DNA of 64,000 bases, taken from a virus. Position numbers and translations under genes: made by a program. Where the stretch lies: positions 36,395 to 100,394 of the IMG/VR virus record IMGVR_UViG_3300009169_000001. One strand, written 5' to 3'. The notes under the pieces were generated by a model that was not told where the DNA came from, searched no databases, and was given only the letters and a program-made list of their open reading frames with translations. Numbering within the stretch: position 1 is the stretch's first letter; every line of letters starts with the position of its first letter. This document shows, piece after piece, positions 31,108 through 49,318 of the stretch.

Positions 31108-33351
31108 ATGACGGTAAAAGTTGAGGCTTTCCTAGCGATTGAGGATAGCCTGACCGCTCGTTTACAGAAGACCTACACGCGACTGGCCCGTGGGTACGAG
31201 CGTGCGGTGCAGGCAGCCATGGCCGAAGGTGATGTGCTAAAGGCGCAGGCCGTCGCCGAGAGCATCGACATGACCCCGGTCTACACCGAGAACGAGTCAT
31301 TCATCCGCATGCAGACCTACGCCTCGCTGACGTTCGGGGCCACACGCCTGACACCCGAGCCCAAGGACACGTCTGTTTCCACAGGTATCTACTCCGGCCT
31401 CGTGAACCGCATGATGAAGAAGCTGAAGGCCGAGATCGTCGGCACGTTCACGCAACGCGTGCAAGACATGATGGTGCAGTTAATTGCACAGGAAGGTGCG
31501 GGCGAGACTGTTGATGAACTGGTCGTACAGAAATACAACGAGAACCAACCCCGTGAGCCCAAGGGGTCCCCCATCGGTGGCCGCTTCAAGGGTGGTGGTG
31601 GCGGCACGGGCCGCACCCTGTACCATGTGACCCTGACCTCACGTGTAGAGGCCATCCAAGAGAAGGGTCTGCTACCCATGCAGACCAGCAACTGGATTCA
31701 AGCAGGTAGCGGCCAGCGCTATGGTGCGGGGGAGGTGTACGCCTTTGAGTCCAAGAAGGATGCGATTCGATGGGCCGCACGCTGGGACTGGCAATTGAAC
31801 AAGGCCACCGGCACCGGTGACGTGAGCATACTGGAGGTGGACAGTGATCCAGATGACTGGCAGGTAGATGAGAACGACCCGCTGAGCCAAGCAGGCGGCG
31901 AGGGGCGCTGGTTCAAGCGCATGGCGAGGATACCCCCTGAGTTTATCGGAAAGCCGTCCAAGGTCACTGCAGAGGCCATACGCTCGATCGTTATGGTGGC
32001 GAAGTACGACAAGAACCAACCCCGTGATCCCAAAGGCAGCCCCACCGGGGGTCAATGGACTTCACAGTACGCGTCCAGTGCGGATAACCCTGACGGCCTA
32101 CCCATGGATCAGGCCTCACGCTTGGAGAGGGCCCGACAGCAGGGCTTCGACACGAGCCGGGTGCTGTACCATGGGTCCAAGCAGGACATCAACGAGTTCA
32201 AGCCGGGCTACGATGATGGGCTGATCTTCCTGACCACCAACCCGGAGTTCGCGGCCAAGTGGATTCATGGCACCGGCGGCCTACGTACAAGAACGACGGG
32301 CCCCTCGGGAGAGCTGTGGGCCGACCAAGAGTACGATGCCCTGAGGGAGCGCATGAGGCCCCTACGGGCCAATTACCCTGAGGGAGACGACGGGGATACC
32401 GCGTACTATGACATGGTGTACGCCGAGAGAGCCAAGCTGGTATCCGCTAGTGCGGTGGACTCAGCGGTGTACCCCGTGTACCTGCGCGTGCACCCTGAGC
32501 AGATCTTCGACCCCCGTACCCAGTGGGCTGAGATCGAGGACACTCTCCGGGAGATCGGCAGGAAGCGACTACGGGAGACCGGTGAGGACCAAGGGTGGGA
32601 CAAGCTGATCGCCGAGGGCAGGCACAAGGAAGGTAACTGGATCATCTACGAGCGCAAGGAAGTGGTGCGGGCCCTCAATGGCATGGGATACAACGCCATG
32701 TGGATCCGTGAGTCCGCACTGCAGGATGCACCCACCGAGACCATTGCGGTGTTCGACCCTAGTGACATTCGATCCGTGAATGCGGTGTTCGACCCCAAGC
32801 ACCAGTTCAGCAAGAACATCCTCAAGTATGATGAGAACCAGCTTAGGGACAGCAGGGGTAGGTGGGCCACAATGTGGCATCTGACTGATAACCCTCAGTT
32901 TGCGTTAGATTCGGCACGCACCCCGGAGAAGAACACCTCGATGGGTCTGGGGGTTAAGCCGGGACTTTTTGTTGCTAAGGATCTGGAGCCATGGGTCAAT
33001 GGCTACGACTACGTGCGCCCGTTTGCAGTGGAGCTGAAGGTGCCACTGGATTTGTCCACCCCTGATCCCGGCATGTATGGCGGGGAGCGGTTTATTCCGG
33101 CGGAGAGATTTGGTGATGTGGAGGTATCCCGCGTGATACCTCTCGATGCGTATGCGCGTGAGGTCTACAATGACTATGGTTGGCTGGAATCGTGGCGGGA
33201 CTCACCCCCTATGGGCCAGAAACCTCCCGAGCGGTGGTACACAGGCCCTGACGTCCGGGTGATGCCTAAGAAACAACAGCGGGCGTACATTCAACTCGCG
33301 CAAGAGTATTTACGTGCTAACCGCCCATGGGTGTTGGACGAGCAGGAGTAA
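31108..33351 (+). CDS. polyprotein: MuF/gp7-like N-terminal region + three tagged ADP-ribosyltransferase-fold domains
   Basis: Helical N-terminal ~140 aa directly after portal; tags at 31522, 31993, 32815; domains LYHVT..GL.P..IPPE, LYHGS..VYPVYL..VFDP.DIRS, MWHLT..GLFV..ERFIP. Confidence 0.7.
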   Translation: MTVKVEAFLAIEDSLTARLQKTYTRLARGYERAVQAAMAEGDVLKAQAVAESIDMTPVYTENESFIRMQTYASLTFGATRLTPEPKDTSVSTGIYSGLVNRMMKKLKAEIVGTFTQRVQDMMVQLIAQEGAGETVDELVVQKYNENQPREPKGSPIGGRFKGGGGGTGRTLYHVTLTSRVEAIQEKGLLPMQTSNWIQAGSGQRYGAGEVYAFESKKDAIRWAARWDWQLNKATGTGDVSILEVDSDPDDWQVDENDPLSQAGGEGRWFKRMARIPPEFIGKPSKVTAEAIRSIVMVAKYDKNQPRDPKGSPTGGQWTSQYASSADNPDGLPMDQASRLERARQQGFDTSRVLYHGSKQDINEFKPGYDDGLIFLTTNPEFAAKWIHGTGGLRTRTTGPSGELWADQEYDALRERMRPLRANYPEGDDGDTAYYDMVYAERAKLVSASAVDSAVYPVYLRVHPEQIFDPRTQWAEIEDTLREIGRKRLRETGEDQGWDKLIAEGRHKEGNWIIYERKEVVRALNGMGYNAMWIRESALQDAPTETIAVFDPSDIRSVNAVFDPKHQFSKNILKYDENQLRDSRGRWATMWHLTDNPQFALDSARTPEKNTSMGLGVKPGLFVAKDLEPWVNGYDYVRPFAVELKVPLDLSTPDPGMYGGERFIPAERFGDVEVSRVIPLDAYAREVYNDYGWLESWRDSPPMGQKPPERWYTGPDVRVMPKKQQRAYIQLAQEYLRANRPWVLDEQE

Positions 33352-33355
33352 CTAT

Positions 33356-33550
33356 ATGAACTACCCCAAACTGATCGCGAGAAACAAATACGATGGTGCT
33401 GGTGTGTGGGTACTGGGCGAGGGCCGCAATGCCCCGGCTGTTATCAGCGTGGAAGCGCCTGACCCTGAGACGGCGGTGACCAGACCCCTGCAGGCACTGG
33501 TAGCCCACCTCGATCTGGGTGAATGGCAGAAGGTCACGGATACTGACTGA
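33356..33550 (+). CDS. small partner protein (putative immunity), 64 aa
   Basis: GGAG RBS, directly after an effector polyprotein. Confidence 0.5.
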   Translation: MNYPKLIARNKYDGAGVWVLGEGRNAPAVISVEAPDPETAVTRPLQALVAHLDLGEWQKVTDTD

Positions 33551-35616
33551 TGTACGAGATCCTCAAGTTCGACGAGAGCCAACCACGCCACCCCAAAGGC
33601 AGCCCCGAGGGAGGCCAGTGGAGCGGGGCCCCCGTTCCCAAACTGGGCAAATACGCCCGCATGGTCATAGAGCAGGTGAACTCCAACACGTGGTACCACG
33701 GGAGCAGACGCAACCTCGACATTGACAATCTGGACCTCGACCAACCCATCTACCTGACGGAGTCTGCCCGGTACGCCAGCTACTATGCCGCAGGGGAAGC
33801 CACGGGCAGCCCACTCTCATTTAATCCCGCCAAGGACACACCCCTCCCTGACTTGAGCTACGAGGAGTGGGAAGCCGAGATTGAGGCGTCCGCCAAGACC
33901 CTGAAGCAACCCCTCGACACCGACCAGCAGTACACGCGCCTACGGGAATTGGAGGAGCTTGAGAACAAGTACCAAAGTGACAGGATCATGCACCAGATCG
34001 AGATCATCCCCGATGATGTTTGGGCCACGATTGAAGCCAAGTGGCAGGCGCAGAAGCCTGAGCTGGATGCACTGCGGGCCCGATGGGAAGAAGCGGATAA
34101 ATTGCGGGACGCCCATTTCCGCCTGATCAACCGGAGATACGGGCGGCCCCAGATATACCCAGTGAAGCTGGAGATCAAAGCCCCCTACCTGACCACCAAT
34201 GAAGATTTCATTCTAGGCTTTGAAGGCGGGCTCTCCATTAAGGAGGACGAAGACATCCAGCGACTATTGGCCAAGGGCTACGACTCCATTGTGTGGACAC
34301 CCAGCGCTGAAGAGATGGATGGATTCGAAGACTTCGGGAAGATGCAAGGGTACGCCTACGGCTCAGAACTACTGATCATTGACCCCAAGGTGATCAAGAA
34401 AATCCGCTCTGTTTACCGCAAGAGAGACCGCGTCCAGTTTTTGTCCGGGACAGACCTGCGCGTCCTGAAGTACGACCAAAATCAAAAAAGACACCCCAAG
34501 GGTCACCCGAAAGGGGGGCAGTGGGCGGATGAGGGCGCAGAAAACAGCGCACCACTGGCCGAAAGACTGACCAGTTTCATGGAAGAATTGTGGGCTACGA
34601 CGGACCCACACCCCTTCGCACATGGCATGCGGTTGACCAAGGACTGGGTGGGTTTGGAGGTGAGGCCGTTCGATAACGCGATCCACCTGAGTTCGATCAT
34701 GTCGTTTGTGCCCAAGGGCAAAGGGGCAGGCACCAGAGGTTTGTTGCAGTTAATTGCACTGGCAGACAAGCATCAGGTCGACATCACCGGGTTTGTAAAG
34801 CCGATCGAGAATGCGGGGTCTGATGAAGGTAAGCCGAGCCTGACCAAGAAGCAGCTGCACAAGTGGTACGCCAAGCATGGCTTCAAGAAGGACAAGGCGG
34901 GGGACTACATCCGACGCACGCCCAAGGTTGAGGTTGAGAAGTACAGCAAAGACCAGCCCCGACACCCGAAGGGCACGCGTGAAGGGGGACGCTTCGCTTC
35001 TTCAGGCAACCATGCGCTGGCCAACAATGGACGGGCCGCCCTGCGCCGGAAAGGCTTTGATCCAGATCAAGTGCTTCGGGATTTGAAGAAAGAACAGGCC
35101 AAATTCACCAAGAATGGCGCGAATTTGGGCATTCGGGTCGACGCCGACCTCGATCAAGAGGCCCTGCCTACTGAGGAACTGACTCGGATCATGAAAATGT
35201 TCCCGGCGAAGAGCTACGAGGGCTGGACCTTGGCACATGGTGAGGAGTTCGTCTCCCCAGCCACACCACCCCCGATCAAACTGGGCACACCGAAGCAATG
35301 CTTTGCCAACGCGGGCAAGTACGTGGCCATGGACTCCGTGTTCGCCAAGGATGATGTGGAGTATGTGGAGGGCTTTGTGATGGACGCTCGCCTGCCATTC
35401 CCTATCCACCACGCGTGGTACGTGAAGAGCGGGACCAATGAGGTAATCGACCCCACGATGGGCTGGAGACCCGGAGCTGCCTACTATGGTGTGCGCTTCG
35501 ATCGGGCATTCCTGCGCAAGAAGCTGTTCGACCAGAAATACTATGGCCTATTCACCGATGGCCTGCGGCCCCTGCCGCTGATACTAGGTGAAGATGAGGA
35601 CTACGACTACACATGA
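33550..35616 (+). CDS. polyprotein: tagged ART-like + GNAT + papain/transglutaminase-like domains
   Basis: Tags at 33556, 34459, 34930; WYHGS..IYPVKL..GYDS; KGKGAGT..WYAKHGF; CFANA..HHAW..IDPT. Confidence 0.75.
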   Translation: MYEILKFDESQPRHPKGSPEGGQWSGAPVPKLGKYARMVIEQVNSNTWYHGSRRNLDIDNLDLDQPIYLTESARYASYYAAGEATGSPLSFNPAKDTPLPDLSYEEWEAEIEASAKTLKQPLDTDQQYTRLRELEELENKYQSDRIMHQIEIIPDDVWATIEAKWQAQKPELDALRARWEEADKLRDAHFRLINRRYGRPQIYPVKLEIKAPYLTTNEDFILGFEGGLSIKEDEDIQRLLAKGYDSIVWTPSAEEMDGFEDFGKMQGYAYGSELLIIDPKVIKKIRSVYRKRDRVQFLSGTDLRVLKYDQNQKRHPKGHPKGGQWADEGAENSAPLAERLTSFMEELWATTDPHPFAHGMRLTKDWVGLEVRPFDNAIHLSSIMSFVPKGKGAGTRGLLQLIALADKHQVDITGFVKPIENAGSDEGKPSLTKKQLHKWYAKHGFKKDKAGDYIRRTPKVEVEKYSKDQPRHPKGTREGGRFASSGNHALANNGRAALRRKGFDPDQVLRDLKKEQAKFTKNGANLGIRVDADLDQEALPTEELTRIMKMFPAKSYEGWTLAHGEEFVSPATPPPIKLGTPKQCFANAGKYVAMDSVFAKDDVEYVEGFVMDARLPFPIHHAWYVKSGTNEVIDPTMGWRPGAAYYGVRFDRAFLRKKLFDQKYYGLFTDGLRPLPLILGEDEDYDYT

Positions 35617-37601
35617 TGGACCTCCACGACGACGAGTACCTGTACCTCAACCAATCGGTGGAAGGCCAGCCGATTGAGCCTGATGAGATGGCGATGCTGG
35701 CAACGACCAGCCTGATGCGCATCCTCAAGTACAGCAAGGACCAGCCGAGGGCCCCGAAGGGTACGGCTATCGGGGGCCAGTTCGTGGATGATCTGGAAGC
35801 GGGGCTTGCCATGACCCGTACGAAGATTTTGGCACTGGGCAACAAGTCTGGCATGGAGCACTTGGCGGTGTTGGGCCCTGATGGCAAGCTGGCGGTCGAT
35901 ATCAAGCGCGGCAACAAGAGCAGCGTGGAGTTCACTCCCGAGATGCTGAAGCTGTTCGAGATGGAGGAGAACGACTACCTGCTGGTGCACAACCACCCGA
36001 AGACGTCATCGCTCTCTATGGCGGATCTGACCGCAACCATGTTCCCCGGCGTCAAGGCCATTGAGGCCGTAGCCAGTGATGGGCCCAACAACATTGCGTT
36101 CCGGGGGTCCATGATCATTGGTAAGGATCTGGACAGCGAAGAGCTGCGCAACACCATAGGCGGGTACCTGCGCAACATGAACACCCGGATCGGTGACCAT
36201 ATCTTCAAGCCGCTGTCGGAGAAAATGACTTCAGGTGACATCACCTCTTTTGAGGCTAACCTGTTCCACACCCACTCGGTCAATGAGGTGCTCCGGAGGG
36301 CCAAGGTCACCGACTACAAGGTGGAGGATCCCACCGGGATGCTGCCCAAGATCGAGAAAAAGGTACGCAAGAGCGTAGCGTGGGATGATGTTCTGAAAGC
36401 CGCCCAGAAAGATCTGGAGGGTATGGTGGATATGGAGTTCCTGCAGGAAGACATCGCTGCCCATGAGAGCGAGCGAGTGCACAAGGCCGACTGGTTCGTG
36501 GGCCTCATCGACCCTCCCACTCTGGAGTACGCCACCACCGAAGAGCTGCGGGAGTGGAAAGCCGATCTGGACGCTATGCCCATGTTCGCAGACAAGCCTG
36601 ACATGGTGCGGGATGTGCACGCCGCTCTGGCAGCGCGAGGCCAGTACGCGTTCATCCTCAAGTACAGCGAGAATCAGCCCCGAGACCCTAAGGGCACTCC
36701 CACCGGAGGCCAGTGGTCGGCGACGGGGGGTGAGGCAGGCAACACTTACGGTGCAATTAATGTCAATAGCGGGGCGGTGCGTTACCGGGAGGATGCACTT
36801 CTCGATGCCATGGTGCAACGCGGGACGTTTACCGAGCCTAAGGCCATTGATCTACTCAACCGTGCCGATGAAAACCTTCGGGGGGTACTGGCTGAGGCCG
36901 ACATCGTGATCAACCGCAGGACCCTTGAAGTGCTCGCAGGCATTGCCATGGACGGGCGCATCAAATCTCAGTTCGAGACTGGCAAGTCCGATGGCATGCT
37001 GGACCCCAATTTCCGGAGCAAGGCTGAGAGCATGTTGTTCGGCATCGATCACCATGATGACGATGAGGACCTCTGGGATGAAGATGGGGGCCGCAAGCCC
37101 GGCAGCAAGATCAAGGAGTTCCCCCCTGCGCTGCGCCCTATCTATGGGTACGCGAAAGATGAGGATGATGATTTCGATGTGGCCTCTGAGTACGGGCGCT
37201 ACCAGCTGGTACTGAAGAATTCTGTGCGGGAGCGCACTACCATTACCGGGGGCGACAGTCTGGACTACTCGTTCGATGACCCACGCTACATGCCCTCCCC
37301 GATCGATAGCCCCTCGGTGGTGTCGTTTACCAACCACAGCGACCCTGATGAGGCAGCCAACTTTGCGGAGGTCGCCGCCAATGGTGGACTGGGTAACACC
37401 AAGGACATCCGGGCACACGTGCGGTACAGCGGCTATCTTGAGGTCCAGATCCATGGGGGCGTCAAGCTGTCCGATGTCAAGAAGCTGCGGGTGCCCAAGC
37501 CGGTGGTCGATCAGGAGCAGTATCGGGAGCAGGCTGAAGTGATCATGCAGATGTACCGTGACGCCGGGATAGAGGTCGAAGTTTACGAGTTTGACAGGTA
37601 A
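35613..37601 (+). CDS. polyprotein: tagged JAB/MPN-like + DUF3626-like domains
   Basis: Tags at 35718, 36651; E..HNHP..SLS..D; KSQFETG, RPIYG, YG, RTT..GDS, YLEVQIHG. Confidence 0.7.
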   Translation: MMDLHDDEYLYLNQSVEGQPIEPDEMAMLATTSLMRILKYSKDQPRAPKGTAIGGQFVDDLEAGLAMTRTKILALGNKSGMEHLAVLGPDGKLAVDIKRGNKSSVEFTPEMLKLFEMEENDYLLVHNHPKTSSLSMADLTATMFPGVKAIEAVASDGPNNIAFRGSMIIGKDLDSEELRNTIGGYLRNMNTRIGDHIFKPLSEKMTSGDITSFEANLFHTHSVNEVLRRAKVTDYKVEDPTGMLPKIEKKVRKSVAWDDVLKAAQKDLEGMVDMEFLQEDIAAHESERVHKADWFVGLIDPPTLEYATTEELREWKADLDAMPMFADKPDMVRDVHAALAARGQYAFILKYSENQPRDPKGTPTGGQWSATGGEAGNTYGAINVNSGAVRYREDALLDAMVQRGTFTEPKAIDLLNRADENLRGVLAEADIVINRRTLEVLAGIAMDGRIKSQFETGKSDGMLDPNFRSKAESMLFGIDHHDDDEDLWDEDGGRKPGSKIKEFPPALRPIYGYAKDEDDDFDVASEYGRYQLVLKNSVRERTTITGGDSLDYSFDDPRYMPSPIDSPSVVSFTNHSDPDEAANFAEVAANGGLGNTKDIRAHVRYSGYLEVQIHGGVKLSDVKKLRVPKPVVDQEQYREQAEVIMQMYRDAGIEVEVYEFDR

Positions 37602-37645
37602 CCTCGCCCCACCGACAATTGCCCTACGCGCCAAGAGACACCACC

Positions 37646-38194
37646 ATGAAGAACCTGCTGAAGATCCTCAAGTACGACGTGAACCAACCCCGAGATAAGA
37701 ACGGGATGTGGACCAAAGGCGGTGGCGGCGGTAAGGCCAACTTATCGCTAGGCTCAGCGAATAGCCTACCCAATCCGACCTCGATCCTGAACGCGATTAC
37801 GGCCCAGTATGGCGGCAGCACCGAGAGGGTGGTGTACAACCCCGAATACCCAGAGTCGCAGCCCCTGATGGTGGAGGAGGACTCTCAGCGCGAGCGCCTG
37901 AGGGCGGACCTGTTGCAGTCCGGGTGGGTGAATACCAAGATCCAGAGCTATGAGGCCACCTATTACGGCAGGATGGCGGATACGGACCACGTGTTCGAGC
38001 ACCCCCTGAGCAAAACCTCCCAGATCATCATTCGAAACAATAATCCTCGAATAGATATTCGGGGCACGCGCAAGCCAAAGCCCGGCGAGCGCAAGCCAGC
38101 GCCCGGTAGCGATGAGGCGGAAGGCTGGAGTTTTATGCCAGACCCCAATAATCCGGGCAATGGCTTCCACATACCTCCGGACTGGTATGGCTAA
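37646..38194 (+). CDS. tagged protein of unknown function
   Basis: MKNLLKILKYDVNQPRDKNGMW; own promoter TTGACA(37591)-17-GACAAT. Confidence 0.65.
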   Translation: MKNLLKILKYDVNQPRDKNGMWTKGGGGGKANLSLGSANSLPNPTSILNAITAQYGGSTERVVYNPEYPESQPLMVEEDSQRERLRADLLQSGWVNTKIQSYEATYYGRMADTDHVFEHPLSKTSQIIIRNNNPRIDIRGTRKPKPGERKPAPGSDEAEGWSFMPDPNNPGNGFHIPPDWYG

Positions 38195-38200
38195 AAACAT

Positions 38201-41200
38201 TTGACAAACCACCCCCTACTGTCTAGTATGGGGGTGTACTTCAAGGAGGAGCCCATGATCGAAATTGCCCTGATTAGCCTGACAGTCGTCTTTCTCGGAC
38301 TGACGTTCATTTTGTTCGTGTGGCCCAGTATTCGAGTGGATAAGCATATCCGCCTGAGTGATGACTGGGACCCCATGGAGAGCCGTGGGCGCATCAAGAA
38401 GAGGTGGTACGAGTGATCGAGATTATCAGCCGAAGCAGCCGCATGAACGTGATCAGCGTGAATGGCGAGGTGTACAAATTCAGACGACGCAGCTCTTCCG
38501 CCCGGTTGGCCGGGTTCGAGCAGCGCTCTGAGGCGGGCAGGATCTTCCGCAACGTGTGGGTCGAGTGCGACGCATGGCCGGGGGAGCGAATGAGCCGCCT
38601 CAAGGTTGAAGCGGTACTCCGCCACCTTGATCTGGGTGAGACGGCTGCGCAGGCTTTCGAGGACGCACAGGAGTGGGAAGTGCGTGGGGATCAAGTTCGC
38701 TACATATCATGGGGGTAAGATGAATCTGGAAGACCTGCAACGCCGCAAGCGCACGGACCGATCCACCGGTAACTATGAGACCCGTGAGGAACTGGTTGCC
38801 GCCTGCCTGTACATGAACAGCGTGACCAAGTTGTCACACCGCCAGATAGGTGAGAAGGTAGGGGTGGCGCAGACCACCGTCACCCGAATACTCTCCGGGG
38901 ACGCACCCGAGTACCGCAAGGCCTACGCGGCGGTGAGGGAGCTGCCAAGCACCAAACTCAACAAACTGTGGAAGGTGCCAAAATCCACAGTGGGTCAACC
39001 CGTTATCAACCCGAAGTACCAGTGAAGGAGCACACCATGAGCAAAGTACTGTCACCTGACGAACGTTGCACCAAGTCGGTACGCACCGAGGGCACTAACT
39101 TCAGGCACCACCAATGCAAGCGAGGTGCGGTGAAGGACGGCTTCTGTCTGCAGCACCACCCGGACACGGTAGATGCCCGACGCAAGGCCTCTGATGATGC
39201 TTTCAAGCGGAAGCATGAGCAGAGCATTTATGGCCAGTACCGCCGGGCGCTGGAGCGTGTCAAGGTGCTGGAGACCACCATCGAGAACGTCCTGTACGGG
39301 ATACCCACCGACTACCAAGGTAGCCGAGATGACCACGGCCTGCTGCGAAAGGCTGATGTGGAATTGGCGATCTCCCTGCTGCAGTCAGTATTACCGGAGA
39401 AGAAAAATGACGTATGAATCGATCGGGCTGATAACCCTATTTCTATTGAGCAGCCTACTGGTTCACCTACTGGTGAAGAACGCGTACCTGCGGGGCCGAG
39501 CAGACGGCTATGAGTCGGCGTCCAAGCTACTGGACACCGGTCTGAAAAGTATTTTTCGTGAGTAGCCCATGACCTTTGATGAATGGGTGTACCAGCTGCC
39601 TGATGATGAACTGGAATGTCTGTGCCCTGCCGATGCTTGGCGGGCCGGGGCACTCGCCATGATCGACGCACTGATTGATCGAGGCTACATCAGCTTGGAC
39701 TACGCAATGCTTGCGCGGGAAGACGTGGCCGATATCTGTTCGTTAGGGGGTACGAGGTGAGCGACCGGTTGTGTGACACCTGCGGGGATTACAAAGAGTT
39801 GTGCGGGCACGAGTACCTTTACGCTGAAATAAAAAGGCTCAAGGCAGAGAACCAGAGGCTGCGAGAGATACACAAAAGCAATGTGGATGAGGATACGCAC
39901 AGCAGAATCATGCGGAGCAGCCACTTCTGCGAATGGCGCACCTCCTTTGAGGCTGTAATTGAACGCAGCAAGGCAGCCCTACTGCAGGAGGACAAGGCCA
40001 ATGAGTGACAAACTTTATCAATCAGCGTTAAGCAGGCTTTCCAAGGCCTATTGCGATGATAGTGCCGCAGGCGATATAGAAGATCATGTTGAGGGATTGG
40101 AGGCCCGCATCACCCTGCTGGAGGCCTTAGTAAAAAGGCGTGACCGAGGAATGCACACTATAGGGCAGCATGAGCAGGGGTGTCCGGGCCGTTACCCATC
40201 AGGCCGCTGCATCTGTGGTCACGACGATGTGGCCAAGTATTTTAAGGAGCAAGGGGGGTGAGTAAGAGTATACTCGAACGGATACAAGCATGGAGCAGAT
40301 TCCACAAAGGCGTAGCGTTTAAGCCCGAGACACCCTCCGTCAGTGACAGCGAAGTGGTAGCCGAATTACTCCGGCTAGAAAAGCGCATCGCCCTGCTGGA
40401 GGCAGCGATACGGAACCATAAAGCGTGTGGGGGCGAACCCGTAGATAGTGAACGGCTATACTCTGTACTGCAGGAGGACAAGCCATGAGTGGGGAGAGTA
40501 CTGTGAAAGTAGTGCTTGGGCTTTTCGTCCTGTTGGCAGTTATAGCGGTCTGTAGCGCCTACGTTCTTGGAGGCTGTGGATGAGTGACTGCCCAGAGTGT
40601 GGCGTTATCAACTACGGCATAAACCCGCGCTGTGCTTCATGCGTGAGGAAGGTGATGCTGGAGCGCATCAAAGAGCTAGAGGATGTGGCAGAGGCGGCGG
40701 AAGGAGCACTGGATTTTATAGAAGAATGGGCCTCGCACACCCGACGTAACCTTGAAAAAGCCCTTACAGCGGCTGGGTATCCGAAGGGGCAAAACAAATG
40801 AAGGCGTGCGGGCATGAGAACGTCACGGTGGAAGGGTGTGACACCTGCTACGTCGTGAAGCTGAAAAAGCGGGTCGATAAACTGCTGGCAGCCGAGCACA
40901 AGCGTCTCGACCGCATCAGGGAGCTGGAATCAGCAGCAAGAGCTGTGCTCATTCACTACCGCCTTGATGGCGGAGACTTTGTTGATGCGATGAACGATCT
41001 GGAAAAACTATTACCGGAGCAAGGGAAATGACTAGGTCCATTTTAAAGTATCCATTTGACACCTCTGTCAGCATGCTCAAGGGGGCAAAGATTCTTACCG
41101 CTCAATATCAGCGCGGGAATCTTTGTATCTGGGCCTTGGTTGACGCAGACGAGACAGCAACTGAAGTCCGCAATTTCATGATCTACGGCACAGGTATGAC

Positions 41201-43257
41201 ACTGCCAGACAACCCCGGCGTATATATCGACACCGTCCAAGAAGTAGACCTGTTCGTGTGGCACATTTTTGAGGGGGTGGGGAATGAGTAAGTTAGTTCC
41301 ATGCGGTAAGACATTGGGTCACGGTGTGAGCTGCACTGACAGCTTTGAAGGCGGACTGTGCGATAGTTGTCAGCACATAAAGGAGCTGGAGGAGGACAAG
41401 GTAACCCTCCGTGAAGTGACATGGACTCAGGATGCCCGCATCAAGGAGCTGGAGGCAAGGCTCGCAACGATTATTAAAATCTACCGCACCGCTGGCCCAT
41501 GCTTAGATTGTGACGCAATAGGTGAAGCAATAGAGCAAGCAGAAGGCTGCGGTGAATGGTACTGGGCAGATTTGGGCATGCCTGTTTCTGAGAGTGCCGA
41601 GAACCCGAACGAAAATTGCTTCACAAAAGTATGGGTACCGGAATGAAACACGAAACGACGATTGAGTTAAAACCCTTCAGCACACCGAATTATGTGCTGA
41701 TTGCTCCAAAGCTGGGGAGGCGGCAGGACGGGTTCGACCATGCACCTGCCATCCCCCTGTCTGACCTGAGTGTAGAGACGCTGGACTCCCTGTGCACGCA
41801 GTTCAGGGCCGACGTATTCGCCAAAGCAGGCAAGGCCGACGTAAAAGAGGGGAAGGGCCGATGACTGATTGCGAGCACGGACAGCCCGAGTGGGCCGCCT
41901 GTCCAAAGTGTATTGAGGCCGCTGAGGAGCGCATGGCTGCCCGACTCCAAGAGTTGGAAGAGCGGCAGGTGGCGTGGCTGCAGGAAAAAATGGAGGAGGC
42001 ACAGAAAGTGGCCAAGCTGGCTCGCATGCTCTACCTTGCACGAGACGCCCTTACCCAGATCAGTCTGGCCAGCAATAACAGTATGTCTACAAAAATCGAG
42101 TGCGGGCGGATCGCCCGTAAAGCCTTGAAGGAGCTGCACCTATGAGTGATAACCCCCTCTGCCCCCACTGTGGGAAGATCTTCTATGAAGCAAATCGTGT
42201 GAGCATACATGGTATGTACGACGCCCACCTTTTTCAGAAAGTTACGGGGAACAGTGTTGATGAGATCATCCTGAACTGGGTGCTGGAGGAAGACGACGTT
42301 CAGTACGGCCCAACGTCTCTCTGCCCCGCCATTGTGCTGTGCGGCAAGAGGGAGTTGCGACGCGTGGGTCCCATGGTGCATAGGCGCACTGACGCCGCTG
42401 TGCTCAAGCAGTACCGGGAAGCGCTGCTGGCCGACCCCGATATACCCCGCCTGCTGGGTTTGGGTACAGCCTCTGAAAGGCCGGAGTGACGCCATGAGTG
42501 CATTCAGTGAATTTGTGATAACCTACTGGCACTTCACGGTCCCTGTAACTCTGATCGTTGGAAGTTTTTTGGCAGGCCGCTACGCCTAAGGTGAGCTACC
42601 ATGAGAATACGCACGTTCAGGAAGATATCGACCCTCGGCCTGTTGATGGTGGCCACGACGCTGCCGATACTGATCACCAACTTCCACGCCCCCGGCGGGC
42701 TGGAGTACATCCTGTCCATGTCGGCGTCCATCGGCATACCTCTGGGGCTGCTAACCTCTATAGCGCTGCGGACAGGGCACCTCTATGACGTTTGATCCCA
42801 AGGTACGGTAATGAAGACGCGATATTTACTGCTAGGTATGTTTATAGGCATTCTCGGGGGAGCGCTATTTCAGTTTGTGCTCATACATGCACCGCACCAC
42901 AGCACAGTACTCTTCTGTGAAGAAATCATGGCCCGTAACCCACATGATGGGAGGTAGCATGAGCCTAGCAGAGGATGCCACAGGGCTTATCCTAATCTTT
43001 TTCGTAGGCGGGCTCTTCTACCTTGGGTGGGTGCTATCCAAGAGGAAAAAGTGATGGCGTGGTGGCAAAGGATACGCGCCCGGTGGTGGATAATTCGACA
43101 CCATGGGGACTCGATAAATCGGCGGGTGGAGGTAGAGAATTACCTGCTGAAAGCCTACAAAGGACAGAAGCCTCTACCGGATAAAGCCATGTGTCGAGAG
43201 CTGGCCGTGAAACTGGGCGTGCCCACAGACTGGCAGAAAAAACCGGGTAGCCCCTAA
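38201..43257 (+). other. block of ~20 small, tightly coupled hypothetical ORFs (includes HTH 38720-39025 and small membrane peptides)
   Basis: Promoter TTGACA(38201)-17-TAGTAT; 45-150 aa ORFs with overlapping start/stop codons; none carry the peptide tag. Confidence 0.65.
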
Positions 43258-43477
43258 GAAGCTCCCAACGTATTCCGAGCCGAAAGGCTTTCGTTGGGAC
43301 CTGCGGTAGCGCGTGGGGCAAAGTCGTGATGCTGGCACAGCCGTCCCTGACACTTCAACGGCTGTGACTGGGTAAGGTGTGGGGCGTAAAGTAATGCACT
43401 TAATCACGGAATAGCTATTCTTTGACAGGGGGTACGCACCCCCCTAGCATGTAGGGATGCGCCGAGAGAACTCTGAC

Positions 43478-44275
43478 ATGTCCCTGTTTTCCATCCTAAA
43501 ATTCAACCCGTACCACGACCCGAAGGATGGCCGGTTCACCACCGGCGACGGGGGTGGTAAGGGCGTTGTTACTACTTCAGATGTGAACGCAGCCGCCAAG
43601 GCGCTGGCTGAGGGGCGGAAGGTACGCCTGACCAGCACCAAGCAGGTATCGACCCTGCTGGCCAAATTGCGAGAGATCGTCGCCGACGCCAAGGCCAAGG
43701 GCAAAGACGCCCCCAATTACAACTTGTGCAGCGTGTCCGTGAAGGGCACCAACCTCTTCTGTGCCGAGAACAAGGGCCTTGCCCGTGTGCAGATGCCGCA
43801 GCTCTCTGGCAAGCCCCTGCCGGGCAGTAAGGGCGACAAGCTGCCCAAGGATAAGGACGGCGGCATCGATCTTACTGGTAAGTTCCGGGAGCACCTTGAG
43901 AAGGCGCTAGGCGTCAAGGTGTCGGATGAGGATGAGAAGGCCTCGTACCTGAAAGCCACACAGAACGAACTGAACGGCGTGAAGGTGGCGGGCATGTCCG
44001 GTGCCTTGGAGTCCGGCACCCTGCCGGATGCCAGACTGTTCGTGTCCAAGGACAACTACGTCGTGGACGGGCACCACCGCTGGGCGGCCAATGTTGGCGC
44101 TGACGCGTCTGATGGGAAGCTGGGGGACCTCACGATGAAGGTGGCGCGGGTAGACATGGACATCATCACCCTGCTGTACGAGTCCAATAAATTCGCCAAG
44201 GACTGGGGCCTGCCCCAGATGAGTGCCGCCAACGTGAAGAAGACCACGGGCTGCGGGTGCGCTACGTGCAGTTAA
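43478..44275 (+). CDS. tagged ParB/Srx-like domain protein
   Basis: SILKFNPYHDPKDGRF tag; LKATQ, VSKDNYVVDGHHRWAA; promoter TTGACA(43422)-17-TAGCAT. Confidence 0.75.
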   Translation: MSLFSILKFNPYHDPKDGRFTTGDGGGKGVVTTSDVNAAAKALAEGRKVRLTSTKQVSTLLAKLREIVADAKAKGKDAPNYNLCSVSVKGTNLFCAENKGLARVQMPQLSGKPLPGSKGDKLPKDKDGGIDLTGKFREHLEKALGVKVSDEDEKASYLKATQNELNGVKVAGMSGALESGTLPDARLFVSKDNYVVDGHHRWAANVGADASDGKLGDLTMKVARVDMDIITLLYESNKFAKDWGLPQMSAANVKKTTGCGCATCS

Positions 44276-45207
44276 TTGCACTGCTGAAGTTCAACAAGCA
44301 CCACGAGCCTGCAGGCACTGAGATAGGCGGCCAGTTTGCTTCCGTTGAGGCGTGGCGTCTGCAGCCGGGGATCTACCAGAAAAACGGCGTGTGGGTCCGC
44401 AACGGCAAGACGGTAACCGGCGCTGACGCAGCGACGTTGAAGCGCATGCGCGTGCCCCCAGCGTGGAAGGACGTCAAGGTCAACCCCAACCCTGATGCCA
44501 AGCTGCAGGTGATCGGCAAGGACGTGAAGGGCCGAACCCAGTACCTGTACTCCGCCGCTCACAGTGAGCAGGCCGCCGCTGAGAAGTTTGCCCGGATCAA
44601 GGCGTTCCACGATGCGCTGCCCAACCTGCGCAACCACATGACGCGGGACATCCATGACCCCAACCAGCCTGCAGCTGTGCGGGAGTCCGCTCTGGTGCTG
44701 CGCCTGATCGATAAAACGACGTTCCGGGTGGGCTCGAATGCGGAAACCCATGGGGTTAAGAAGGCCTATGGGGCCACGACTTTGCGGGGCGAGCATGTTA
44801 CAATACTGGGTAACAAGGTCGCGTTTTCCTTCGTTGGAAAGAAGGGCGTCCAGATAGACCAAACGATCACCGATCCGGTACTGGCGAAGGAGCTGCGAGC
44901 CCGGAAGCGCGAGGCCAAGAACGGCCCACTGTTCAAGGTAACCGACAGCCGCCTGCGCCAATACATCAAAGATGAGGGCTTCGGGGGTTTTTCGCCGAAG
45001 GACTTCAGGACATACCACGCGACCTCGATGGCGCTGGCGCTGGTGCGCAAGACCCCTATGCCGGGGAACCGTACGCAGGCCAAGAAGGCCAGAAAGGAAG
45101 TTGCGACCAAGGTGTCTACCAAGCTGGGCAACTCGCCCGCCATGGCACTGGCATCGTACATCAGCCCCGAGGTGTTCTCGGACTGGGAGGATCTACTCTA
45201 TGACTGA
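44266..45207 (+). CDS. tagged DNA topoisomerase IB
   Basis: VPPAW, GKDVKGRTQYLY, FRVG, GATTL, F.GKKG, KDFRT, LGN, SYI (catalytic R-K-R-N-Y); start may be 44257 or 44266. Confidence 0.88.
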   Translation: MQLIALLKFNKHHEPAGTEIGGQFASVEAWRLQPGIYQKNGVWVRNGKTVTGADAATLKRMRVPPAWKDVKVNPNPDAKLQVIGKDVKGRTQYLYSAAHSEQAAAEKFARIKAFHDALPNLRNHMTRDIHDPNQPAAVRESALVLRLIDKTTFRVGSNAETHGVKKAYGATTLRGEHVTILGNKVAFSFVGKKGVQIDQTITDPVLAKELRARKREAKNGPLFKVTDSRLRQYIKDEGFGGFSPKDFRTYHATSMALALVRKTPMPGNRTQAKKARKEVATKVSTKLGNSPAMALASYISPEVFSDWEDLLYD

Positions 45208-45334
45208 GAAAGACGACACGATCAACGAAAAGAAGGAGGAGCAGTTAATGCTCGATTTCTTCGGGACCGTGCAATACGACAAGACCAAGCCTTGGCAGAA
45301 AACGCCGGAGACTGAAGAGGATCCTGACGAATGA
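45200..45334 (+). CDS. small acidic partner protein, 44 aa
   Basis: GGAGG RBS; overlaps the topoisomerase stop; ends ETEEDPDE. Confidence 0.5.
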   Translation: MTEKDDTINEKKEEQLMLDFFGTVQYDKTKPWQKTPETEEDPDE

Positions 45335-46089
45335 CACTGCTGGCCATCTTCAAGTTCAACCCCTATCACGATGAGAAGGGGCGTTTTGCTACGGCTGACG
45401 GCCATGCGTCCCGGTCACCCGCCCAAGGGCAGGGCATCGATTTCGTCTCACCGAACAAGGCCAACCTGAGCTATGTCCGGGCCAAAGAGCGGCTGCAGTC
45501 TCGTGAGCAGTCCCTGCTGGTCCAGTACGGTACCAAGATCAACGCAGCACTGGGCATCAAGGGCTCGATCGCATCGGTAGTAGGGGCGTGGGCTGACGGC
45601 GCTGAGAACAGCACTGTGGGGGTGTACGACGATGACACCCCCTACGAGGCCATCCGCGCCGCAGCCTCCCTGAAGGGGCTACTGGAGCGGCAGAAAGCGG
45701 TCATCGCATTTAAGGCCAGACCCAAGGGCAAGGCCCGTGTGTCCATGCTCGAATTGAAAGGTGGATTGGACATACATCATAATGCTATGATAGAAGCAGG
45801 CATAGAATTTCACACCCTGCAGCCGACCGCTGATGGCGTGAAGGCGTGGGTGTTTCAAGATAAGAGTTCCTCGGCCCTCAACACGAAACTGGCGCACTAC
45901 GCCAAGTCGATGGGGGGGCAGCTAACCACGTGGGCCGGAGACGGTGAGTTCGTGGGGAGCTGGTCTTCCCGCACGGAGGGGAAAGCCGCGTACCTGAAGG
46001 AGCTGGACAGCTACACCGAGCGACACCCGGAGACCAAGGCTGGGATCGACGGAATACTCAAGGACTGGAGACGGAGGTCTGGGCAATGA
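45331..46089 (+). CDS. tagged protein of unknown function
   Basis: AIFKFNPYHDEKGRF tag; GAWADGAENS motif. Confidence 0.7.
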   Translation: MTLLAIFKFNPYHDEKGRFATADGHASRSPAQGQGIDFVSPNKANLSYVRAKERLQSREQSLLVQYGTKINAALGIKGSIASVVGAWADGAENSTVGVYDDDTPYEAIRAAASLKGLLERQKAVIAFKARPKGKARVSMLELKGGLDIHHNAMIEAGIEFHTLQPTADGVKAWVFQDKSSSALNTKLAHYAKSMGGQLTTWAGDGEFVGSWSSRTEGKAAYLKELDSYTERHPETKAGIDGILKDWRRRSGQ

Positions 46090-46283
46090 AGGCGAAGGGC
46101 GTGATACCGGGGTGGGAAGAAAAGCTGAGCCCCGAGGACAGGGCTATTCTTGAGAGGCACCGGAAGGTGTATCCTGCCATGATCGCGGCCAAGCCACGTA
46201 TGACCGACGAAGAATTTATGGGCCTCACCGAAGCGTCGGCGGAGCAGTACAAGAAAGGGATAATCCTGCCGGGGGTGGGGTAG
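46086..46283 (+). CDS. small partner protein, 65 aa
   Basis: ATGA-coupled, GGAGG RBS. Confidence 0.5.
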   Translation: MKAKGVIPGWEEKLSPEDRAILERHRKVYPAMIAAKPRMTDEEFMGLTEASAEQYKKGIILPGVG

Positions 46284-46284
46284 C

Positions 46285-47301
46285 ATGAATTTTCTCGACA
46301 TTCTGAAGTTCGATGAGAACCAGCCGCGCAAGCCGAAGGGCACCCCTGAGGGCGGCCAGTTTGCCTCTACTGGGGGCAAGGCCTCTGGCGGCGGTGTCAT
46401 GGGCGGCCCCGGCGCGGGCAGCACCTTAGACGGGACCTCTGCAGCGCTGCTCCGGGATAAGAACATGGAGGCCGCAGCCCTGAGAGGCGTACAGGCCGCG
46501 CTCAAGAACAAAGGCTTGGACCCTTCCATGGCGGAGCAGCTGCTGGCCCGAGGTAAGGCGATCGAGAAGGAAGTCGAAGACAACTACACCAAGAACGCCA
46601 CCGAGTTCATGCACAAGCTGAAGAACGGCGACTGGACACCTGAGCGGCGGGATCTGCACACCAAAATTCTTGAGGAGTTCTTCGCGAACGAAGACCGGTT
46701 CAAGCCGCCCACCGGTGAGCCCCCGCAGGTACTGCTGTTAGCAGGCCGACCGGGCTCCGGCAAATCCAATTTCGGCAAGGCCCTCAAGATTTACGACAAG
46801 GAGAGCTACATCGTACTGGACTCGGATGAGTTCAAGGCGTTGTTGCCTGAGTACGACCCGGAGCGTCCGGGGTACACTCACCGGGAAGCCTCGGATCTGA
46901 TGGACACCGCTGGCTTGATAGCGCGGGCCAAGGGACTGAACATCGTCTATGACATGACGATGAAAAAGCCCCCAGATGACCTGATCACTATGTTCAAGAA
47001 CCACGGCTACAAGATCGAAGGGCATCAGATGGATGTCTCTGAAGAGACCTCCGCCGAGCGGGCCTACTTCCGGTGGGTTAATGACGGCCAGAACGGCACA
47101 CCGGGCCGCCTCGTACCCCTGAGCATTATTAAGGAAATGAAGAAAATTCCTGAGGTGTTCAAGGCGACAGCCAGTAAATTAGACGCATGGACGCACTACA
47201 CGCATGAGAATCTGGGAGAACAGATCCGGGTAGCGGCCAGTGAGAAGTACAGGGTAGCGAAGGCTTTCCTGAAACGAATCCTCAAGGGAGTTACACGATG
47301 A
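46285..47301 (+). CDS. tagged zeta-toxin-like P-loop kinase
   Basis: DILKFDENQPRKPKGTPEGGQF tag; AGRPGSGKS, LDSDEFK, HREAS, NIVYDMT. Confidence 0.8.
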   Translation: MNFLDILKFDENQPRKPKGTPEGGQFASTGGKASGGGVMGGPGAGSTLDGTSAALLRDKNMEAAALRGVQAALKNKGLDPSMAEQLLARGKAIEKEVEDNYTKNATEFMHKLKNGDWTPERRDLHTKILEEFFANEDRFKPPTGEPPQVLLLAGRPGSGKSNFGKALKIYDKESYIVLDSDEFKALLPEYDPERPGYTHREASDLMDTAGLIARAKGLNIVYDMTMKKPPDDLITMFKNHGYKIEGHQMDVSEETSAERAYFRWVNDGQNGTPGRLVPLSIIKEMKKIPEVFKATASKLDAWTHYTHENLGEQIRVAASEKYRVAKAFLKRILKGVTR

Positions 47302-47486
47302 CCGATTTATCCAAGGATGAAATACGCCAACGGGCCTACGATGATACCCCGGACCCCATGGGCGTGACCATCCTGTTCAGCATGTGGTACAACGACGCAG
47401 GGAAGAAGCCCGAGGAACTGGGCCCTGAGTATGATGACTTGAAAGTGGCGTACGCCAATTGGTTGAAGGCCCGAGGATATGCCTGA
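47298..47486 (+). CDS. small partner protein (putative antitoxin), 62 aa
   Basis: ATGA-coupled to the zeta-like gene. Confidence 0.5.
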   Translation: MTDLSKDEIRQRAYDDTPDPMGVTILFSMWYNDAGKKPEELGPEYDDLKVAYANWLKARGYA

Positions 47487-47808
47487 TCTACTCCGCATCT
47501 TAAAAATGAACCCGTGGCATGATGAAGCGGGTCGATTCGCTCATGCACCGGGGGGTCGGAACCTTGTGCCCAACATCGCGTGGATATCGGACGGCAAAAA
47601 TCGGATATCCACCGACGGGCGCTTCAAGATCGAACCTTCCAGTTCCAATGGCCAGAAATTTAAGAAGGGCACCCCGGTGTACCTCCTGACCGACACTCGC
47701 CACAACAGAGACACCCTGCTGAAGTTCCCCAAGTACCGGGAGTTTATGAAGTTGGAAGACGCGAAAATCGAAGCGAACATGCGGCTGGAAGAACTTGTTG
47801 ATAGCTAA
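47479..47808 (+). CDS. tagged small protein of unknown function
   Basis: RILKMNPWHDEAGRF tag. Confidence 0.65.
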   Translation: MPDLLRILKMNPWHDEAGRFAHAPGGRNLVPNIAWISDGKNRISTDGRFKIEPSSSNGQKFKKGTPVYLLTDTRHNRDTLLKFPKYREFMKLEDAKIEANMRLEELVDS

Positions 47809-49102
47809 GGCTGAGCGGATTGTCCGGGACTTCACGTCCTTTGACACCGAGGCCAAAAACCTATTGCAGTTAATTTCACAGCTGCACACGAGTCGTGTGT
47901 CGGGCTACGGCTACACCGCTGAGGCCGAGATACTGGGCGTGGAGTACTACGCCATCAATGAGCAGCTGGATGTGCGCACCTGCCCTGTGTGCGAGATGAT
48001 GCACGGCAGGGTGTTCCCGGTTTCCGAGGCTAGACGCTTGCTCGACGATATCCTCTTCGAGGAGGATCCCGAGATCATCAAGACCAAGCAGCCGTGGCCT
48101 AGCCAGAAGCAGGCCGCCGTAGCATCAATGCAATTAATGTCACCGGAAGAATTGATCGGTAAGGGGTGGCACATCCCACCCTTCCACCCGTGGTGCAGGG
48201 GCATACTGGTCCACGTGAAGGATGTGCCCGACAAGATCATGCCTGTGGAAGTGGCGGCCCTGCAGGAAGTACTGTCTTCACCGGTACACGCTGGGCGTCC
48301 GATCGAGGTTACGGATTTTGAGGCTCTCAAGCAGATCTCCACCCTAGACTTCAGCATTCAAAACCCCAATGGGAAGATCCCGGAGCTGCGCCCCGAGCAC
48401 TTGGCCACGTGGAACAAGGTGATGGGAGACGTCACCCCCGCCGCGCTGTACAACGTGGTCAACAACGGATTCAAAGGTGCGTTGGCGGTGAACGGCGGGG
48501 AGTTTACCCTGAGCATAGGGGGGGACAACATCCTCATGTCTGCCCGGATGTGGGATGACGTGAAGGGTACCGTGGGGCGCAGCATACTGGCGCACCTAGA
48601 GCGCACTTTTGTTCGCGAGCGGGATGGCGTGCTCAATGTAGAGCATGATTACTTCAAGATTGCTAACCGGCACGCCCGCAGCGGGTACGGCAAGAATTTC
48701 ATGTCCGAGTCCTTTCGCCTCTACGAAGAGATGGGCGTCGAGGCGGTAGATGTAGATGCCAACATCGAGGTGGGGGCCTACGCGTGGGCCAAGTACGGCT
48801 TCAAGCCTAAAAACCTCAAGGTGTCCAAGGCCCTCTCCGATAATTTGAGAACCACCCTGAGAGCGATGTCTTGGCGCTTGTCCCCGGATGTTGTGGACGC
48901 CGTGCAGGAGGTGATCACCAAGATCCAGACCGATCCCACGGCCTTGTGGGTCCTGTCTGACATCGGGTTCATCACTGAAGGTGAGCCCCTTGCCAAGAGC
49001 CTGCTGTATCGTAAATCGTGGCTGGGTACGATTAGACTGGATGATGATGTAGCCATGAATCGGCTATGGGCCTACGTAGGGAGACCTGAAAATGTCAAAT
49101 GA
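47795..49102 (+). CDS. MuF/gp7-like C-terminal domain + C-terminal GNAT-like effector
   Basis: LDVRTCPVC..MHG and PPFHPWCRG MuF motifs; ARSGYG..GAYAWAKYGF; TTG start uncertain. Confidence 0.8.
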   Translation: MLIAKAERIVRDFTSFDTEAKNLLQLISQLHTSRVSGYGYTAEAEILGVEYYAINEQLDVRTCPVCEMMHGRVFPVSEARRLLDDILFEEDPEIIKTKQPWPSQKQAAVASMQLMSPEELIGKGWHIPPFHPWCRGILVHVKDVPDKIMPVEVAALQEVLSSPVHAGRPIEVTDFEALKQISTLDFSIQNPNGKIPELRPEHLATWNKVMGDVTPAALYNVVNNGFKGALAVNGGEFTLSIGGDNILMSARMWDDVKGTVGRSILAHLERTFVRERDGVLNVEHDYFKIANRHARSGYGKNFMSESFRLYEEMGVEAVDVDANIEVGAYAWAKYGFKPKNLKVSKALSDNLRTTLRAMSWRLSPDVVDAVQEVITKIQTDPTALWVLSDIGFITEGEPLAKSLLYRKSWLGTIRLDDDVAMNRLWAYVGRPENVK

Positions 49103-49268
49103 GATGTTCACCCGGAATGGACGTGTCAAAACGGATGAGGCCCTGCACAAGCCCATGCTGGCCAACTTCGAGGCCGACAAAATGACGCAGGAGCAATCTG
49201 CGGCGGTCGCCCGTTCGTGGGGCATGTCCACCGAGATGGTCCAAAAGCTGTTCCCACTGGCAAATTGA
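49092..49268 (+). CDS. small partner protein, 58 aa (not in ORF track)
   Basis: GGGAG RBS; MSNEMFTRNG...LFPLAN*; overlaps the MuF-GNAT stop. Confidence 0.5.
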   Translation: MSNEMFTRNGRVKTDEALHKPMLANFEADKMTQEQSAAVARSWGMSTEMVQKLFPLAN

Positions 49269-49318
49269 CAGGTAGGGCCCCACCCCCCAGAATCCCCGCT
49301 AACTACCGGGGATTTTTT

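Follow-up and report, generated by a model that had tools for sequence, protein, structure and literature searches.

The window analysed here is a 64,000-nucleotide stretch of the uncultured virus record IMGVR_UViG_3300009169_000001 (positions 36,395 to 100,394); the record is a complete genome of 100,394 bp, of which the window is the right-hand part. In the window, the gene of a MuF-type minor head protein occurs as two pieces about 16 kb apart. Comparison of the translated sequences confirmed that the segments 31108-31533 and 47795-49102 are the two halves of one such protein. They are referred to below as the N half (or MuF-N) and the C half (or MuF-C). On the + strand, the order of genes is DNA polymerase I, portal, an open reading frame (ORF) of 747 amino acid residues, eight further ORFs, the 47795-49102 ORF, protease, scaffold-like protein and capsid protein. 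We give a probability of roughly 70% to the reading as a whole, according to which a MuF/gp7-type minor head gene was split by insertion, enzyme cargo came to lie in the linker of the protein, and the halves reassemble and the cargo is released by the steps proposed below.

The N half begins 5 nt past the stop codon of the portal gene, with an ATG at 31108 (the program-made ORF begins with GTG at 31078). It reads ...GETVDELVVQK, with the Lys codon at 31531-31533, and is directly followed by a short sequence, YNENQPREPKGSPIGGRF, which is the first of the cargo tags described below. The N half is the head of the 747-aa polyprotein. The C half lies immediately upstream of the protease, scaffold and capsid genes. 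Its ORF opens with (M/L)LIAK/AERIVRDF, where the slash, here and below, marks the junction after Lys (Lys at 47807-47809, Ala at 47810). It contains DVRTCPVC..HG and PPFHPWCRG; the corresponding MuF core motifs, LD.RTC..C..HG and PPFHP.CR, are invariant across MuF alignments. An earlier note on this DNA had described a post-portal ORF ending in ...DELVVQK before a tag, with the MuF motifs ~16 kb away in an ORF starting LIAK/AERIVRDF, and both were read at these places.

In tblastn searches against cultured phages, both halves matched one gene of the Stenotrophomonas phages DLP3, DLP5 and Summit. The N half aligned with residues 1-139 of the 445-aa DLP3 gp2 (P0001; 30% identity, E 5e-13) and shares with it an identical VVQK end at K139, and the C half aligned with residues 141-278 (43% identity, E 2e-38). 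Because the first match ends at residue 139 and the second starts at residue 141, the halves abut within one residue of DLP3 gp2. A single contiguous homologue thus covers both halves, which is the outcome that the earlier note had named as support for a split gene. The joined halves comprise 142 + 431 residues, compared to 370-580 residues in unsplit relatives, in agreement with the ordinary-length MuF protein that the note had expected. The order of the portal, MuF, protease, scaffold and capsid genes is also kept between the studied phage and DLP3. In profile searches, positions 14-99 of phrog_30193 matched the N half (weakly) and positions 160-303 matched the C half (E 2e-21); the C half also matched the minor-head-protein PHROGs phrog_115, phrog_2841, phrog_4728 and phrog_9907 at ~1e-7. 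The PF04233 (Phage_Mu_F) model scored 18.2 bits (E 0.004) on the C half, below its cutoff of 29.6, and is carried by C-half homologues at ~55% identity (P0014, P0016, P0018 and P0023). Each half occurs once in the 100,394-bp genome.

The DNA between the halves contains 14 cargo tags, all on the + strand, from 31531 to 47503; no others were found anywhere in the genome. The tag has a long form, h-x-K/[YF]-D-x-N-Q-P-R-x-P-K-G-x-x-x-G-G-[QR]-[FW], and a short form, h-x-K/F-N-P-Y-H-D-x-x-G-R-F. In nine cases, the tag opens an ORF behind a leader, which has 5-12 residues in eight ORFs and 38 in the ninth; four further tags lie inside three long ORFs, and one lies directly behind the N half. In the separately translated cassettes, the leader before the tag ends in h-x-K. 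The single long leader belongs to the 662-aa ORF, where a 38-residue stretch (35613-35729) precedes ...LMRILK/YSKDQPR. Nine tagged modules occupy 31531-38194, with three, three and two of them in the ORFs at 31108, 33550 and 35613, respectively, and five tagged genes occupy 43457-47808. The earlier note had inferred an accumulation of cassettes at this place. The ~16 kb does not consist of cassettes throughout: at 38201-43450, ~5.2 kb of unrelated small genes lack tags.

The cargo is varied, and its order differs among relatives. The second cassette of the 747-aa ORF is ART-PolyVal-like (PF18760, 30.9 bits against a cutoff of 31.2). The middle and last cassettes of the 688-aa polyprotein recur in the relatives P0004 and P0003 with their order changed, and the topoisomerase IB of the studied array follows MuF-N in P0004. 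The ParB-like DGHHR domain, which is a C-terminal fusion to MuF in DLP3 gp2, is a separate tagged cassette here (43457-44275), with 36% identity over 58 aa between the two (E 4e-4). Therefore, the same cargo can sit behind or inside MuF. In P0078, P0086 and P0098, another tag follows the MuF-N junction (...VQK/GD..GHPFRGNQYTDG), which suggests that at least two tag families share the MuF insertion point. Full-text literature searches for the tag letters gave no usable match.

Scans of IMG/VR with the N half or the C half as single proteins returned no relatives; these came with an alignment as query. The nearest relatives of the N half (P0003 and P0004, 49-52% identity) have the N domain followed by a tag and cargo, with other cassettes in another order. 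For the C half, the closest matches are P0006-P0012 (61-74% identity), C-only forms that begin at the junction with short K-ending leaders, e.g., MSHSSINK/ADRV; P0010 is unsplit, came out as the sister form in the tree and was used for the structure model. About 30 more distant viral or metagenome loci have an unsplit MuF gene, usually with the tagged cargo genes downstream. In P0013, P0019, P0024 and L013, a single ORF holds one tagged cassette in frame between the N and C parts, and P0019 differs from its near-identical unsplit sister P0015 essentially by the addition of one tag and one ART cassette after the Lys. A profile of the N domain matched 575 representatives (50%-identity clusters) at E <= 0.001. 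Among the 103 top matches that were classifiable by simple motif rules, 41 were unsplit, and 29 had the C core 150-2300 residues further on, with tagged cargo in frame. The other 33 had no recognisable C core; at least 12 of these consist of N, tag and cargo, and several are diverged unsplit forms. The in-frame forms, which reach their greatest lengths in P0106 (2622 aa) and P0114 (2542 aa, with six tags), nearly always read N ... h-x-K/tag-cargo ... h-x-K/A-C. The claim of the earlier note that cassettes accumulated at an internal site of MuF is borne out by these single-ORF intermediates, which carry 1-6 tagged cassettes between N and C. Insertion at this point of the MuF linker is common among relatives, and the studied locus is a fissioned, multi-gene version of the N-cargo-C architecture.

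The structure of MuF was predicted for the unsplit P0010 with AlphaFold2 (AF2). In this model (predicted template modelling score 0.70), the N and C parts have a predicted local distance difference test (pLDDT) score of ~90, and residues 130-169, which hold K161/A162, have a score of 46-55. The N half (residues 1-142) and the C half (residues 1-175) of the studied protein were also folded as separate chains. The ipSAE interface score was 0.79 (0.79, 0.82 and 0.77 in the individual runs), compared to 0.00 for the best of three controls. The 0.79 mark is reached by 58 of 80 solved complexes and by 2 of 110 mismatched pairs, counts that are rough because in-house alignments were used. At least 83% of the contacts agreed between runs, and the pLDDT of the partners was at least 73. 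A Foldseek comparison of the unsplit MuF model with the PDB found no similar fold, and therefore the pass of the N and C halves is not the memory of a solved complex. The prediction shows N and C as one structural unit. The earlier note had held that a split at this place is harmless because the protein is cut there anyway; in light of the model, reassembly of the halves without a covalent link could make the split harmless by itself, apart from any cleavage.

The MuF linker is hypervariable in both length and sequence. Despite this, [VILMF]xK/A was present in the linker window of 30 of 45 distinct MuF proteins, compared to 65 of 721 background windows. The same type of motif is found in two other head proteins. 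At the N-terminus of the capsid protein, all 13 relatives examined have a variable leader of 2-9 residues followed by [LIV][IVL]xK/AD. The scaffold-like protein of the studied phage has seven [VIL]xK/[AS] sites, whereas 0.96 are expected (none of 2000 composition shuffles reached seven), and the scaffolds of several relatives are likewise enriched (10 vs 1.85 in DLP3, 9 vs 1.58 in L003, and 7 vs 1.55 in L014), so that the enrichment in these scaffolds is 4-7 times. In addition, h-x-K precedes all 14 cargo tags. Because scaffolds and capsid leaders are classic prohead-protease substrates, the h-x-K/A motif is most simply interpreted as a putative recognition and cut site of the neighbouring XkdF-type (S78_2) head protease. 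Literature searches on the cleavage specificity of XkdF and on the cleavage residues of HK97 gave nothing usable. The HK97 capsid protein may be cut after a Lys some 13 residues ahead of its N-arm, which is not counted as evidence here. In DLP3 virion preparations, the MuF orthologue gp2 was represented by 8 peptides, and the scaffold gp5 and the protease gp3 were barely detected (PMC7326821, Table 4).

We propose the following scheme. In its ground state within this phage family, MuF begins with a helical N domain (~130 aa), continues with a linker of 10-60 aa that is predicted to be disordered and carries [VIL]-x-K/A, and ends with the MuF core and a variable C-terminal extension. A cargo cassette consists of a tag, an enzyme and then h-x-K. 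Most relatives keep the cassettes downstream of MuF, whereas in many lineages insertion has placed them in the linker right after the Lys, giving rise to N-cargo-C polyproteins. In the studied clade, the insert has grown to 14 tagged modules in nine ORFs, together with the unrelated 5-kb block of small genes. As a result of this growth, N is produced as the head of the 747-aa polyprotein and C from its own gene with a leader of 4-5 residues. At the portal, the N and C halves may come together non-covalently and restore the normal MuF fold, and this re-association would draw the N-attached cargo into the prohead. The XkdF-type protease would then cut after the Lys of every h-x-K site, in the MuF linker, the cargo tags, the capsid leader and the scaffold, and the modules freed inside the capsid would be ejected with the DNA. 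A broader version of this scheme, which we put forward tentatively and at somewhat less than even odds, is that MuF is a general two-piece carrier, whose N and C bookends hold tagged enzymes in a loop, and that one protease releases these enzymes, trims the capsid protein and destroys the scaffold. If true, phages would have a widespread and programmable way of loading proteins into their capsids that has so far not been described.

Several points weigh against the proposed scheme. The residue after the Lys (P1') is mostly Phe or Tyr at the cargo tags and Ala or Ser in MuF, capsid and scaffold; therefore, a single protease specificity remains an assumption. Composition shuffles were the sole baseline for the enrichment in scaffolds, which is weaker in certain relatives (P = 0.14 for L009 and P = 0.09 for L011). 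The published DLP3 proteomics used trypsin and is thus blind to cuts after Lys (PMC7326821), so such processing would have escaped notice. A pass in the complex test is common for halves of a single fold and has no bearing on whether separate chains meet in the cell. The C half starts with TTG (47795 or 47798), with a short spacer to GGAAG. The "split" labels of P0006-P0012, P0017 and P0027 are gene calls on short contigs, with the upstream DNA not in view, and at the studied locus the split is known from the assembled sequence.

The alternative that survives best accepts the split by insertion and takes h-x-K/A to be a docking or structural short motif (e.g., for the portal, the scaffold or a tag receptor) and not a protease site. 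The split would then be tolerated only via non-covalent refolding, and cleavage of the cargo polyproteins would either be absent or take place at other positions. The difference in P1' residues described above would fit such a motif, as would the extensive predicted packing of N and C as separate chains. Moreover, the conserved part of the tag lies after the Lys and would stay on the cargo, unlike the T4 leader, which is removed. We nevertheless consider this alternative unlikely. The motif follows a variable leader at the capsid N-terminus and is several-fold enriched in scaffolds, and the separate cassettes keep a K-ending leader of 5-12 residues that would have no obvious use if it were never removed. 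Polyproteins of 2500 aa with six tags are also hard to square with the absence of processing.

The split by insertion was further examined in a maximum-likelihood tree of the C core, rooted at the midpoint only. The studied phage falls in a clade of seven split forms (support 97/85), which is sister to the unsplit P0010 (98/92) and nested among unsplit forms. The tree requires three changes to the split state and five in-frame insertions; two other split forms and the five in-frame insertions arise separately from the studied clade. The split is a feature of a clade and not a one-off, because the nearest relatives share it, and, judged from this tree, the split state is derived from unsplit ancestors. 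The opposite polarity, with N and C as ancestrally separate genes that were fused in other lineages and the studied locus as the primitive state, appears very improbable. It would be in line with the Pfam model, which treats the C part alone as Phage_Mu_F, and the midpoint root leaves some room for it. However, most forms are unsplit and every major branch has some of them, the split clade lies nested beside an unsplit sister, and the P0015/P0019 pair is near-identical save for one inserted cassette. In addition, N and C form one predicted fold, and the polyproteins keep N first and C last with the cargo between them. That the split is an artefact of chimeric assembly from a metagenome, or a sign of decay in a defective phage whose MuF is a pseudogene, is scarcely credible: the record is an uncultured viral genome and a one-base change at 47801 alters the reading of the boundary between the last cassette and the C half, but the N-plus-tag and C-only forms recur in independent assemblies from other samples. 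Each half is intact and present once, and both are conserved, with 72-74% identity to C-only relatives. The genome has terminal repeats and a rating as complete, and coding is continuous on one strand.

The boundary upstream of the C half has its own peculiarity. The last cassette (ORF9) ends with ...MRLEELVDS and a stop codon, and its last 11-14 nt are shared with MuF-C, whose start is a TTG (47785-47812). Dropping the A at 47801 fuses the two frames to ...EELVVAK/AERIV, a near-echo of the DELVVQK junction of the N half. The overlap may be genuine, or it may reflect a recent frameshift or an indel in the assembly. A programmed frameshift from ORF9 into MuF-C was considered. MuF-C is more likely a separate gene than a frameshift product, because there is no slippery site and the C-only relatives have their own ATG starts and short leaders. 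An interruption of the intein type was rejected, as the splicing blocks (Cys/Ser at +1 of the intein, a terminal His-Asn and a nucleophile on the C-extein) are absent from the break: the N half is followed by Y-N-E-N-Q-P-R of the tag, the C half is preceded by L-I-A-K and begins with Ala, and no intein family was found among the Pfam or PHROG matches. The C-terminal ~230 residues of the MuF-C ORF (48400-49102, motif YAWAKYGF) form a GNAT-like extension, which was found alone or on other MuF proteins in >60 IMG/VR loci; the Joint Genome Institute (JGI) name for relatives is "GNAT superfamily N-acetyltransferase". The features of the region are collected in Table 1.

Table 1. Features of the split MuF locus and its neighbourhood (positions in the window; tag positions are those of the Lys codon)
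Feature	Position	Strand	Basis or remark
Portal protein gene	29249..31102	+	PF04860 Phage_portal, 40.6 bits; gene order as DLP3 gp1
MuF N half, helical, 142 aa, ends ...DELVVQK	31108..31533	+	Alignment with DLP3 gp2 residues 1-139; N-domain profile
Three tagged cassettes fused in frame after MuF-N	31531..33351	+	Tag K codons 31531, 32002, 32824
688-aa polyprotein, three tagged cassettes, leader MYEILK/F	33550..35616	+	Tags 33565, 34468, 34939
662-aa polyprotein, two tagged cassettes	35613..37601	+	Tags 35727, 36660; second has DUF3626
Single tagged cassette, no function assigned	37619..38194	+	Tag 37670
Tagless block, ~15 small ORFs	38201..43450	+	Pfam: helix-turn-helix (HTH), DUF7352, zinc-ribbon-like
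Tagged cassette with ParB-like DGHHR region	43457..44275	+	Tag 43499, short form FNPYHDPKDGRF; phrog_2859
Tagged type IB topoisomerase	44257..45207	+	Tag 44287; PF01028 E 1e-27, PF21338
Tagged cassette, no function assigned	45331..46089	+	Tag 45352
Tagged zeta-toxin/AAA_33-type kinase	46285..47301	+	Tag 46306; PF06414 E 5e-24
Last tagged cassette, 109 aa, ends ...EELVDS and stop, overlaps MuF-C start	47479..47808	+	Tag 47503
MuF C half: 4-5 residue leader (M)LIAK/, MuF core (~residues 6-145), GNAT-like C-terminal extension	47795..49102	+	
Prohead protease, XkdF type	49217..49918	+	PF14550 Peptidase_S78_2, E 2e-25
Scaffold-like protein, seven [VIL]xK/[AS] sites	49989..51089	+	
Major capsid protein, N-terminus MENQSLIKK/ADIAL	51116..52051	+	64-76% identity to capsid proteins of 13 relatives

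The tagless block has a lower GC content (0.53-0.55), and at each of its ends, at 38201 and 43422, lies a promoter-like site whose -35 box is a perfect TTGACA. A further promoter-like site with a perfect TTGACA is located at 37591, near the cassette 37619-38194. The block resembles a module with its own transcription that has been placed in the head operon, and it is not cargo.

A 14-bp quasi-palindrome, TGCAGTTAATTGCA, was found at 13 sites with at most two mismatches, compared to 0.26 expected. Exact copies are located at 31475, 34745, 44267 and 53673, and copies with one mismatch at 47865, 8077, 15205, 24024, 13926 and 27065. One copy lies 45 nt before the junction in MuF-N, where it codes for VQLIAQ, and a near-copy lies 56 nt after the junction in MuF-C, where it codes for LQLISQ. 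Insertion or deletion of the array by recombination between these junction-flanking copies was considered and rejected, as the motif occurs genome-wide and a deletion would cost parts of both halves. The motif is probably a regulatory or other DNA site, because it is spread over the whole genome.

To our knowledge, little is understood of the role of MuF, a near-universal head protein, and T4-like phages are the only ones for which the loading of capsids with effector enzymes has been worked out in detail. The organisation described here suggests that MuF consists of two halves with a permissive loop between them, in which cargo is preferentially lodged. No description of cargo inside MuF, of a conserved linker motif or of fission of the MuF gene was found in the full-text literature searched. 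The proposed scheme amounts to a testable grammar (N, then h-x-K/tag-cargo repeated, then h-x-K/A-C) and predicts a cut site common to capsid, scaffold, MuF and cargo. It would account for many giant "polyvalent" proteins that end in a MuF domain, and foreign proteins might be placed in the linker so that phage particles deliver them.

Among the known systems, the internal proteins IPI-III and Alt of phage T4 carry an N-terminal capsid-targeting leader that is removed by the prohead protease gp21. The T4 leader is cut after Glu by a protease of another family, and nothing conserved stays on the cargo. In both T4 and the studied phage, a short N-terminal leader is found on unrelated proteins and ends in a protease motif, which in the studied phage is the putative h-x-K one; the T4 proteins enter the prohead and leave it with the DNA, as is proposed here for the cargo. 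In contrast to T4, the putative cut is after Lys and by an S78_2 protease, the cargo would keep a conserved tag of 12-20 residues, and half of MuF carries the first polyprotein.

Polyvalent proteins (Iyer, Burroughs, Anand, de Souza and Aravind 2017; PMC5512222) are described as many-domain effectors of the head module, often fused to MuF or portal, for which packaging and delivery with the DNA and processing by their own zincin or papain-like peptidase domains were proposed. As in the polyvalent proteins described there, several unrelated effector modules share one polypeptide in the long ORFs of the studied array, and the domain types of the array include ART-PolyVal, zeta-type kinase and ParB-like ones. 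Whereas MuF is presented in that paper as a single domain to which effectors are fused, in the studied phage the cargo is found within the MuF fold at a conserved h-x-K/A of a split gene, with the prohead protease as the candidate cutter. A term search of that paper found no "linker", and the passages that it returned make no mention of tags.

MuF polymorphic toxins (Jamet et al. 2017; PMC5576092) have a variable toxin module C-terminal to MuF and are found in Firmicutes prophages with downstream immunity genes. Here, too, MuF is a constant, virion-associated carrier of variable modules and part of the packaging module. However, the layout with an N-terminal MuF and a C-terminal toxin is not that of the studied locus, where the cargo lies between the halves and not behind the core. 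Up to 14 modules are placed mid-protein, in a 100-kb phage of proteobacterial type. Another close counterpart is gp2 of the Stenotrophomonas phages DLP3 and DLP5, which is annotated as "ParB-like nuclease domain protein" (MT110073, PMC7326821). It is an orthologue at the same post-portal place, with the same N and C halves and the same VVQK/A junction. In DLP3, this protein is contiguous (445 aa) and has the ParB-like domain fused at its C-terminus, whereas in the studied phage the ParB-like domain is a separate tagged cassette between the two halves of MuF.

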